Positions 25,913 to 28,558 of a stretch of 35,625 nt of DNA are shown piece by piece. Position numbers and translations under genes: made by a program. The notes beneath the pieces were generated by a model. The model was not told the origin of the DNA. It did no database searches and worked only from the letters and a program-made list of their open reading frames with translations. Every line of letters begins with the position of its first letter. Within the stretch, counting starts at the first letter, position 1. Source of the DNA: Gammaproteobacteria bacterium (GTDB lineage: Bacteria > Pseudomonadota > Gammaproteobacteria > SZUA-229); the NCBI GenBank assembly GCA_029881425.1, contig JAOUMO010000003.1:1-35625 (forward strand), written 5' to 3'.

Positions 25913-28558
25913 ATGAAACTTAACACACCAGTTACAGACCATGAAATTTCGCTCAGCAACGACCATGTGATCGTTTCAAAAACAAATCTAAAAGGCATTA
26001 TTACTTATGTGAATAAGGACTTCATTGAGATCAGTGGTTACACGGAAAAGGAACTGATTGGCATTAATCACAATTTAGTTCGCCACCCGGATATGCCCGC
26101 TATCGCTTTCCAGGATTTATGGGACACCATCAAGCTTGGCAAGCCGTGGACAGGCATAGTAAAAAATCGCGCAAAAAATGGTGATTATTACTGGGTCGAA
26201 GCCAATGTCACCCCCATCACTAAAAATGGGCATATATCTGAATATCTTTCGGTACGGCGCAAGCCTACAAGCCAACAGGTAAAAAATGCCGACGATCTTT
26301 ACCACCGACTCAATGCCGGCAAAATACCCAGGCCATCGATTTTACAAAAACTCTCGGCACTTAAATCTTTATCCTTAATGAAAAAGTTTTATATCCTGAT
26401 GCTCTTCATGGCCATCAGTTTTGCGCTCTCCGGCGTATTTGCATGGACGCCAATGAACCTCATTGGTGGCCACTGGTTTGATTACCAGGAACATGTATTA
26501 AAGCGCCAGACCCTGCAGAAAAACATAATGCAGCAATTTGGCTATGGTGGCGCTATCCACCAATTTAAAAACTACGTATTACGTGGCGCCGAAAAACATA
26601 AGCAACAATTTGAAGAAAATCATTTACAGCTCAAACAGACAATTACTACCTATCGTGCGCTCGAAGACATACAACCAGAAGAACTACAGGCGCTCATCAT
26701 TATTGAATCGGTTGCCAACGATTATGCATCGATGCTTGAGCCTATTAAGGCGATGATCCGGGACGGCAATACAGCCATGGAAATCGATGGTCGCGTTAAG
26801 ATCAGCGATGCACCAGCCATCGAGGCACTGAAAAAACTGGATACCGTATTTATTCAACGCACCGAGAAAGTAAGTGCTGATATAAAACAAATACTGGATA
26901 TAGGTTCCAAAGCCGTTGCCATAATGCCGGTTATTGGCTTTATTCTCCTGTTTTCTATTTTCTGGCTATCCTTGCGCTACAGCATCATAAACCCACTGGA
27001 GGCCGTCCGCGGTATATTCAAGAATATTGCTGAAGGTAAGCTATTTAACGACATTGATATATCATCCGGGGATGAAATAGGACGTGTCAGGCGTGAACTC
27101 AAATCAATGCAAATTAAATTGAGTTATGACATGAATGAATCCAGTCGACTGGTAACTGAAGGCTTGCGCATCAAGACAGCCCTGGATAATGTATCGACTA
27201 GCGTTATGCTGGCCGATGACAATAGAAACATATTGTATGTTAACAAAACTTTGCACGATATCCTGCAAAATGCCGAATCCGACATACAAAAGGATTTGCC
27301 CAACTTTAATGCCGACAAACTACTGGGCGAAAGCATTGACCAGTTCCATAAAAAACCGGAACACCAGAAAGGCATCCTGGCCAGGCTAACCACTGAACAC
27401 AGGGCGCGCGTAAATCTTGGTGGACGCAGTTTTGATCTGGTTGTAAATCCTGTTGTCGACAAAAATGGAAAACGAGAAGGCACCGCTGTTGAATGGGCGG
27501 ATGTTACCGAACAATTAATCATGGAACAGGAAATCGACAGGGTGGTTAATGCTGTTGCAAAGGGCGAACTTCAAAACCGTATTAATCTTGAAAACAAGGA
27601 AGGCTTTATAAGAAACCTGGGGCAGGGCGTAAATGAAATGACCCATGTCGTAAACGACAGCATTAAGGAAGTCGAAGAAGTACTATCATCCATGGCGACT
27701 GGTGACCTGACCCATAATGTCAGTACGGGTTATAGCGGTGCATTTGGCAACCTGGCCAATAGTGCCAATGACACCATCAATAAACTAAAGGATATTGTAC
27801 AGAAAATACGTACTTCCGCAGAAAACATAAATACTGCAAGCTCTGAAATTTCCCAGGGCAATTCCGACCTGAGCTCAAGGACAGAACAACAGGCATCCTC
27901 GCTTGAGGAAACCGCATCCAGCATGGAAGAATTGACCAGCACCGTAAAACAAAACTCAGACAATGCAAATAATGCAGACAAACTGGCGATGGGTGCACGA
28001 ACACAGGCACAGCATGGCGGTGAAATTGTTGGTCGCGCCATCAATGCCATGTCCGCCATCAATGAAAGCTCAGGCAAGATTGCGGATATTATTAGCGTCA
28101 TTGATGAAATCGCTTTCCAGACCAATTTGCTGGCACTCAACGCCTCTGTAGAAGCCGCACGTGCAGGCGACCAGGGACGTGGCTTTGCCGTAGTGGCCAG
28201 TGAAGTACGAAACCTTGCCCAGCGTAGTGCGACGGCTGCGAAACAGATTAAAGACCTGATTTCCGACAGTGTCGTAAAGGTAAAGGATGGATCACAACTT
28301 GTTAATGAATCAGGCGTAGCCCTTGAAGAGATTGTTAAGTCTGTTAACCAGGTGAGTGAAATTGTTGCCAATATCGCAACCGCCAGCCAGGAACAAACAC
28401 TGGGTATAGAACAGATCAACAAGGCCATAATGTCGATGGATGAAATGACTCAACAGAATGCCGCACTAGTTGAAGAGGCTGCCGCAGCAAGTGAATCACT
28501 CGATCAACAGGCCGGTGAACTAACCCAGCTGGTAGGCTATTTCAACACCATGAAATAA
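25913..28558 (+). CDS. methyl-accepting chemotaxis protein: PAS(Aer)-TM-periplasmic domain-TM-HAMP-PAS(Aer2)-HAMPs-MA
   Basis: RHPDMP and [12 protein letters not shown]; two TMs; [11 protein letters not shown]...[45 protein letters not shown]. Confidence 0.95.

Follow-up and report, generated by a model that had tools for sequence, protein, structure and literature searches.

A chemoreceptor that joins Aer-type and Aer2-type PAS domains and a periplasmic domain in one chain

Gene and domain layout

The 35,625-nucleotide contig JAOUMO010000003.1 from the draft genome of a gammaproteobacterium of the GTDB lineage SZUA-229 (assembly GCA_029881425.1), referred to here as the window, encodes a chemoreceptor in which a PAS domain of the Aer type, a periplasmic domain, and a PAS domain of the Aer2 type are parts of a single chain (Table 1). 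The protein begins with MKLNTPVT and ends with GYFNTMK. A word-indexed homolog search, in which at least 8000 candidates were scored and the best 120 were taken (119 besides the query), yielded 20 relatives that span at least 96% of the receptor length at 40–62% identity. The alignment of the query with these full-length relatives (alignment A1, 21 sequences) supports the assigned start codon, as all of them open with MKxNxPVT.

Searches of the whole protein against Pfam placed PAS_3/PAS_9 at residues 17–114, HAMP at 355–403, PAS_8/PAS_4 at 419–534, HAMP_2 at 564–624, and MCPsignal at 691–846. A prediction made earlier from the sequence of the window (the original prediction) had located the transmembrane segments TM1 at about residues 159–178 and TM2 at about 334–354, enclosing about 155 residues, with a HAMP after TM2, further HAMPs, a kinase-control (MA) domain, and no C-terminal pentapeptide. 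Kyte-Doolittle hydropathy in a 19-residue window agrees with both segments and leaves 156 residues between them, the HAMPs and the MA domain were recovered by Pfam and by alignment to the Aer2 chain 3vol, and the end of the chain, GYFNTMK, holds no pentapeptide. The layout of the receptor, namely Aer-type PAS, TM1, periplasmic domain, TM2, HAMP, Aer2-type PAS, di-HAMP, and MA, is confirmed by domain matches with E-values far beyond chance and by the identical layout of 20 independent database proteins.

Table 1. Features of the receptor gene and of its product
Feature	Position in the window	Residues	Strand	Basis or remark
Whole receptor gene	25913..28558		+	881 residues and stop codon; one uninterrupted frame, ATG start
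PAS1, Aer-type (putative FAD) PAS with N-cap	25928..26317	6-135	+	8dik, 31cj, Pfam PAS_3/PAS_9
TM1	26387..26443	159-177	+	Hydropathy 2.19 over 19 residues
Periplasmic sensor domain	26444..26911	178-333	+	Helical, weakly CHASE3-like
Periplasmic signature motif, 17 residues	26537..26587	209-225	+	Conservation in 159 domain copies
TM2	26912..26968	334-352	+	Hydropathy 2.53
HAMP1	26975..27121	355-403	+	Pfam HAMP E 2e-08, 34.8 bits, cut-off 25
PAS2, Aer2-type (putative heme) PAS	27164..27514	418-534	+	H479, H484, L509, W528, D530-x-T532
di-HAMP	27518..27790	536-626	+	Equivalent to the HAMPs that follow the P. aeruginosa Aer2 PAS
Kinase-control (MA) module	27794..28546	628-878	+	Pfam MCPsignal 1e-51; 36H, no C-terminal tether

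The combination of modules might be an artefact in which the assembly of a metagenome bin fused an Aer gene with an Aer2 gene. The genome is a draft of 260 contigs, and the stretch was found in a run labelled as sediment metagenome. Such an artefact is nevertheless extremely improbable, since the gene is one uninterrupted frame inside a 35.6-kb contig, the identical domain order occurs in 20 proteins of several sources and also in 13 open reading frames (ORFs) from eight related genomes, and a separate Aer is present in the same genome. The sequencing runs listed as containing the stretch are two DNA runs, one of which is a possible source of the window, and include no RNA run.

Sensor modules and their distribution

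The N-terminal PAS domain closely resembles that of Aer. Residues 11–134 aligned without gaps, N-cap included, to residues 4–127 of the solved PAS domain 8dik, which is labelled 'Aerotaxis receptor' (E 3.6e-41), and about half of the residues are identical as counted by eye from the alignment. The full-length Aer entry 31cj matched in the identical register (E 3.3e-42). R57, H58, D60, W70, and N85 therefore occupy literally the positions that they have in Aer, as had been predicted, and all five are invariant in the 21 aligned homologs. The roles of these residues in the cofactor pocket and in signalling come from the mutagenesis of Aer. The next-best matches of PAS1 were also flavin PAS domains (3ewk, E 1.2e-26; NifL 2gj3, E 2.8e-15). 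PAS1 probably binds flavin adenine dinucleotide (FAD) and reports the electron-transport or redox state.

The second PAS domain, together with the HAMPs that follow it (residues 410–626), matched the P. aeruginosa Aer2 chain 3vol with an E-value of 4.6e-57, continuously up to chain residue 230. PAS2 aligned over 117 residues without gaps to P. aeruginosa Aer2 4hi4 (E 3.4e-35) and was also matched to the V. cholerae-type chain 6ceq (E 1.5e-12). A constant offset of 245 places H479, H484, L509, and W528 opposite H234, H239, L264, and W283 of Aer2, so the spacing proposed originally for H479, L509, and W528 holds in the gap-free 4hi4 alignment. The junction between PAS and HAMP (DxT) is retained as D530-V-T532. 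W528 and T532 are invariant in all 21 homologs, and H479, H484, and D530 are present in at least 90% of them. The roles of PAS2 residues other than the heme histidine and the junction motif are taken from the Aer2 literature. PAS2 probably holds a b-type heme on H479, with W528 stabilising bound O2. Within the Aer2 PAS cluster, heme binding is determined mainly by the E-eta histidine (PMC10468136), and signalling depends crucially on a conserved motif between the PAS and the C-terminal HAMPs (PMC13401364). The NCBIfam equivalog model of the Vibrio aerotaxis transducer Aer2 (NF041847) scored 553.6 bits on residues 418–879, below its cut-off of 1200; therefore, the window receptor is a relative and not an equivalog of that protein. 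It is the only assembled protein of its genome with an Aer2-type PAS.

The periplasmic domain belongs to a large family. Residues 175–338 matched 1794 representative clusters at E≤1e-3, 802 at E≤1e-10, and 13 at E≤1e-30. Among the best 148 new matches, 31 proteins carried the domain once, 113 carried two copies in tandem, two had three copies, and one each had five and seven copies. The loose motif G-x-G-G-x-x-H-x-x-K-N-x-x-x-[RK] was found in 141 of these 148 matches and an MA domain in 76. The proteins P0122 and P0123 contain runs of up to seven GYGG-type domains, complete or partial, which are followed by HAMP and GAF domains and not by the output domain of a methyl-accepting chemotaxis protein (MCP). 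The signature of the family is near-invariant, G-Y-G-G-x-I-H-x-F-K-N-Y-V-L-R, and was absent from the literature searched with six versions of the motif. Over 159 domain copies, conservation was counted for G210 (159 copies), H216 (157), K219 (158), N220 (155), R224 (157), Y247 (144), E257 (155), Y271 (159), D292 (157), and D299 (158). No protein of the genome other than the window receptor carries a GYGG-type periplasmic domain.

The fold of the domain was approached through domain models and a predicted structure. In whole-protein Pfam scans, the CHASE3 model matched seven of the 21 aligned homologs, with a best E-value of 0.0022. The periplasmic domains of the relatives scored mostly below cut-off with CHASE3, 4HB_MCP_1, or HBM, and P0122, a member of the periplasmic family, reached 36.0 bits with CHASE3 at a cut-off of 28. 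The structures nearest to residues 175–338 of the ESM Atlas model of the receptor were NIT, TarH, and 4HB sensor modules, with TM-scores (by query) of 0.72–0.81. Helical periodicity of the averaged hydropathy was detected in 45% of windows, compared to 11% in 200 shuffles (sd 6%, maximum 37%). From the Atlas model and the periodicity count, the module is read as a divergent CHASE3-like helical bundle within a widespread family that lacks a Pfam assignment. Because its polar residues are unusually fixed, this set suggests one conserved small ligand or ion. The strongly conserved periplasmic family, which domain libraries do not name, is the more novel element of the receptor.

The modules of the receptor are combined differently in its relatives. 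The periplasmic domain with the 17-residue consensus motif is shared by 18 of the 21 aligned proteins; P0117 and P0118 have a TarH/4HB_MCP_1 domain in its place, and P0069 has no more than a short membrane anchor, together with two PAS domains of the heme type. The C-termini of the 21 proteins vary as well: seven end with a CZB zinc-binding domain, ten with a W-x-x-F tether, and four, including the window receptor, with neither. The CZB carriers (P0002, P0003, P0010, P0018, P0026, P0027, and P0028) are the closest full-length relatives, at 50–62% identity. The CZB domain would be a fourth sensor module; the window receptor stops right after the MA domain.

A wider survey with one genome per species kept 78 loci, with 59 ORFs containing an Aer2-type PAS, 55 of which have a W-x-x-F end. 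An N-terminal Aer-type PAS was present in six of the 59, at 57–64% identity (one each in L048, L052, L064, and L075, and two in L067). Two of these six have a membrane hairpin and four have 170–285 residues between the membrane segments; the GYGG motif was found in none of the six. Among 30 relatives of the genome, 17 of the 18 genomes of the same family matched residues 1–420 at E≤1e-20, mostly through PAS1 only. From 11 regions of eight same-family genomes, we picked 13 ORFs that start with an Aer-type PAS (56–66% identity). An Aer2-type PAS is also present in 11 of these; six of the 11 contain a large extracytoplasmic stretch, and five a hairpin or a single hydrophobic segment. None of the 13 contains the GYGG domain. 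The lineage thus appears to shuffle sensor modules freely, and the combination in the window is one of several. The original prediction had presented the architecture as one without a characterised counterpart. In the literature searched, no characterised receptor has all three modules, and to that extent the claim stands; the architecture is not singular, as 20 of the 119 relatives listed share it over the full length.

Such shuffling also raises the possibility that the receptor is effectively driven by one or two inputs, with one or more modules being structural or regulatory leftovers. The role of PAS1, for instance, might be confined to stabilising HAMP1, or the periplasmic bundle could be a ligand-free spacer, leaving the heme PAS as the sole real sensor. 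The family includes hairpin forms, forms with other periplasmic domains, one form that lacks the heme PAS, and one that lacks the heme histidines, and the PAS domains of multi-PAS Aer2 receptors play unequal roles (PMC13401364). We regard a reduced number of inputs as rather unlikely, since the diagnostic residues of PAS1 are all invariant in 21 of 21 homologs, and about ten polar periplasmic residues are retained in more than 95% of the 159 domain copies, which is hard to square with a spacer.

Signalling domain and output pathway

Residues 593–878 aligned to 286 residues of solved chains named 'Methyl-accepting chemotaxis protein I'. When the signalling regions of eight MCPs were aligned with MAFFT, two symmetric gaps of 14 residues, one per arm, were common to the window receptor (contig C130 of our numbering) and the MCP of contig C109. 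The remaining six MCPs of the genome, among them the canonical Aer of contig C117, are without these gaps and have two extra heptads per arm (40H). On this alignment, the signalling domain of the window receptor is classed as 36H, and those of Aer and five other MCPs of the genome as 40H. Receptors that differ in length class are not known to share arrays. The C109 MCP is 77% identical to residues 698–878 of the window receptor, compared to 28–34% for the other MCPs.

The draft genome comprises 2.27 Mb in 260 contigs and is 95% complete. Contig C109 (2820 bases) encodes the last 236 residues of a 36H MCP ending with EEWEEF; next come CheR, CheD, and the first part of a response regulator, probably cheB. 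We take this gene order to be that of the che2 cluster of P. aeruginosa. The flagellar cluster, flhB-flhA-flhF-ParA-like ATPase (probably flhG)-fliA-cheY-cheZ-cheA, is on contig C136; a cluster of the pilG/H/I/J-chpA type is on C170 and C227; and C204 has the genes of CheV and CheR next to that of a CZB-containing MCP. The Aer of C117 (1565-3136, minus strand) is a canonical protein of 523 residues whose PAS contains the same RHPDM...W...N residues and is followed by a membrane hairpin, a HAMP, and an MA domain of the 40H class. An ordinary Aer is thus encoded besides the hybrid receptor.

The window receptor probably feeds an F7 (Che2-like) array rather than the flagellar F6 pathway, as judged from its length class and from the 77% MA identity to the receptor of the C109 cluster. 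F7 output is the likeliest because the tip of the receptor matches that of the MCP beside cheR-cheD-cheB and not those of the 40H receptors of the flagellar cluster. All of the 130 Aer2-like receptors collected in one study are 36H, and the family forms F7 arrays (PMC7184735). The tether pentapeptide x-[HFYW]-x(2)-[HFYW] was present in 96 of the 130 and was called a fundamental feature of the family, and tetherless Aer2-like receptors were found only in genomes with a tethered Aer2-like homolog (PMC7184735). In Shewanella, 40H receptors signal to F6 and Aer2 signals to the F7 Che1 system (PMC9855816). In the species studied, F7 does not act on motility, and in Shewanella it may control RpoS (PMC7184735, PMC9855816).

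The genome encodes a cbb3-type oxidase subunit (FixO) and the large subunit of RuBisCO, which is consistent with an autotroph living at low O2 and does not in itself prove microaerophily. The pmoA/amoA profile (PF02461) gave no match, and neither did its control. These genes also fit a gradient-dwelling autotroph in which the receptor would belong to the main polar array and act in flagellar aerotaxis or energy taxis, steering the cell along gradients of O2 and chemicals. Both PAS types come from receptors named for aerotaxis, the genome has the flagellar cheY-cheZ-cheA cluster, and heterologous Aer2 receptors drive O2 responses via the 36H system of E. coli (PMC13401364). However, the signalling hairpin of the window receptor is two heptads per arm shorter than those of six mutually similar MCPs, the genome's own Aer included, and 40H receptors serve F6 whereas the 36H Aer2 serves F7 (PMC7184735, PMC9855816). 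A flagellar role is therefore improbable. Aerotaxis had been suggested as the output of the receptor; both PAS assignments speak for it, but the 36H tip points to F7 and not to flagellar aerotaxis.

The surroundings of the gene are housekeeping genes, for an MFS transporter, GNAT, DTW, PPK2, HemN-like, and other proteins. A scan for promoters and terminators around the receptor gene revealed nothing above shuffled expectation. The GNAT gene (28623-29066, minus strand) and the DTW-domain gene (29054-29671, plus strand) are divergent, and their predicted 5' ends overlap by 13 bases. The window also encodes two separate DUF4124 proteins (21256-21879 and 32794-33318, both on the minus strand).

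Proposed mechanism and comparison with known systems

Based on the domain assignments and the length class of the signalling domain, a mechanism can be proposed. We hold with moderate confidence that the protein is a dimeric inner-membrane receptor that belongs to the Aer2 (36H) lineage, carries three sensor modules one after another, and most likely has F7 output. By homology, PAS1 would hold FAD and act sideways on HAMP1 as in Aer, and the periplasmic bundle would bind a ligand and thereby move TM2. H216, K219, N220, R224, Y247, E257, Y271, D292, and D299 form a candidate ligand-binding polar constellation. HAMP1 would pass the signals of PAS1 and of the periplasmic domain in line into the heme PAS, as HAMPs do in Aer2. 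O2 bound at the heme on H479 would be read out by W528 and L509, and the D530-x-T532 junction and the di-HAMP would then transmit the signal and set the state of the 36H kinase-control tip. Because no further sensor lies between the heme PAS and the output, the upstream signals would modulate or gate its output rather than bypass it. Comparable modulation was reported for the stacked PAS domains of V. vulnificus Aer2 (PMC13401364). Methylation may be helped by CheR tethered on the C109 receptor through its EEWEEF end; such a borrowed tether is proposed because the window receptor carries none. The integration of three inputs by one receptor is plausible.

Several observations weigh against this mechanism. 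Pfam identified nothing in residues 178–333 of the window receptor, even at E≤1, and a sequence search of the PDB with the periplasmic domain alone gave only one match, at chance level (E 2.3). The comparison by hhalign of the 159 domain copies with the TarH-type domains of eight sister receptors was weak, with 18% probability over 48 columns (0.1% for the control). In the full-length relative P0026, Tyr and Arg replace H479 and H484 while W528 is kept, and this protein may be a natural heme-less variant. The same-family ORF L101 (G011:C20, 671-2881, minus strand) starts with an Aer-type PAS, after which come a periplasmic stretch of 160 residues, a HAMP, and an MA domain of the 36H class that ends with DWEEF; having no heme PAS, it is a natural version minus the Aer2 module. 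Relatives swap or lose modules, so not every module need be essential. Concerning the output, the receptor gene is an orphan outside any che cluster, and the F7 assignment is drawn from a partial cluster, C109 being a fragment. Contig C109 ends on both sides, with the N-terminus of its MCP and any cheA or cheW lying outside. The CheA dimerisation domain (H-kinase_dim) was matched only once in the assembly, in the flagellar cluster of C136, and no F7 CheA was found.

We speculate that the periplasmic pocket binds an ion or small molecule related to respiration, such as an oxyanion or a metal, and acts in series with the flavin and heme PAS domains in reporting to F7. This more specific proposal is tentative, and we consider it possible but unlikely. 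If it were true, one molecule would compare an external electron acceptor or donor, the internal electron flow, and O2, and an unrecognised sensor family would be present in more than 1000 protein clusters, single or in tandem, on MCP, GAF, and other outputs. Identification of the ligand of the GYGG-type domain would allow many receptors to be annotated in one step.

The two PAS chemoreceptors that serve as models, Aer and Aer2, are naturally fused here in one chain with an outward-facing domain in addition. The fused receptor is a ready-made system for studying how lateral (Aer-style) and in-line (Aer2-style) PAS-HAMP signalling are combined, and it would probably tie a periplasmic input to F7 arrays. 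In the literature searched, Aer2-like F7 receptors are described without a periplasmic domain.

Like E. coli Aer (8dik, 31cj), the window receptor has an N-terminal PAS with an N-cap in the same numbering, with R57, H58, D60, W70, and N85 kept; after this PAS come a linker, membrane segments, a HAMP, and an MA domain of 36H length. In E. coli Aer, the membrane segments form a hairpin without a periplasmic domain, a single HAMP directly precedes the MA domain, and there is no heme PAS (PMC13401364), whereas the window receptor has 156 extramembrane residues and a heme-PAS/di-HAMP unit inserted before the MA domain. The idea that E. coli Aer descended from the fused type was dropped, as the match of the MA domain to the 'Methyl-accepting chemotaxis protein I' chains scored higher (278 bits) than that of the non-PAS part to Aer.

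The heme PAS, DxT junction, di-HAMP, and 36H MA domain align continuously with P. aeruginosa Aer2/McpB (3vol, 4hi4). PAS2 and the PAS of P. aeruginosa Aer2 are about 53% identical, as counted by eye, and share the heme His, the second His, the Leu, and the Trp. P. aeruginosa Aer2 is soluble, with three N-terminal HAMPs, a C-terminal tether pentapeptide, and a place in the che2 cluster (PMC7184735). In contrast, the window receptor is transmembrane, has the Aer-PAS, the periplasmic domain, and one HAMP upstream, and is the tetherless product of an orphan gene. The multi-PAS Aer2 receptors of V. cholerae and V. vulnificus likewise stack sensor PAS domains in line before a di-HAMP and a 36H tip, but all of their PAS domains are of the heme type and the proteins are soluble, which sets the window receptor apart.

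MEALZ_2872 of Methylomicrobium alcaliphilum, described by Ortega et al. in 2020, has an N-terminal PAS, two short potential membrane segments, a HAMP, a PAS, two HAMPs, and a signalling domain, and was assigned by its authors to the tall F7 arrays seen by cryo-tomography (PMC7184735). Its model sequence, given from the HAMP onward in supplementary file 1, shares the motifs F-H-K-x-P-x-H-Q and V-E-W with the window receptor (PMC7184735). The hydrophobic segments of MEALZ_2872 are 10 and 14 residues long and enclose no periplasmic domain, unlike those of the window receptor, and a flavin-sensor role of its N-terminal PAS is not discussed in the accessible portion of the paper (PMC7184735). Hairpin forms like MEALZ_2872 occur in relatives of the window genome (L099, L098, L100, and others).

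The periplasmic domain is similar to CHASE3 and four-helix-bundle sensors (PF05227, PF12729, PF16591) in its size, its position between TM1 and TM2, its helical character, and its occurrence in MCPs and other signalling proteins. It differs from these Pfam families in being unmatched by their models, and most of its relatives score below the cut-offs. A receptor with a flavin PAS, a periplasmic domain, and a heme PAS was neither described nor tested in the accessible portions of the open literature searched. The window receptor is a variant within the Aer2 lineage, and one member of a modular family rather than a singular invention.

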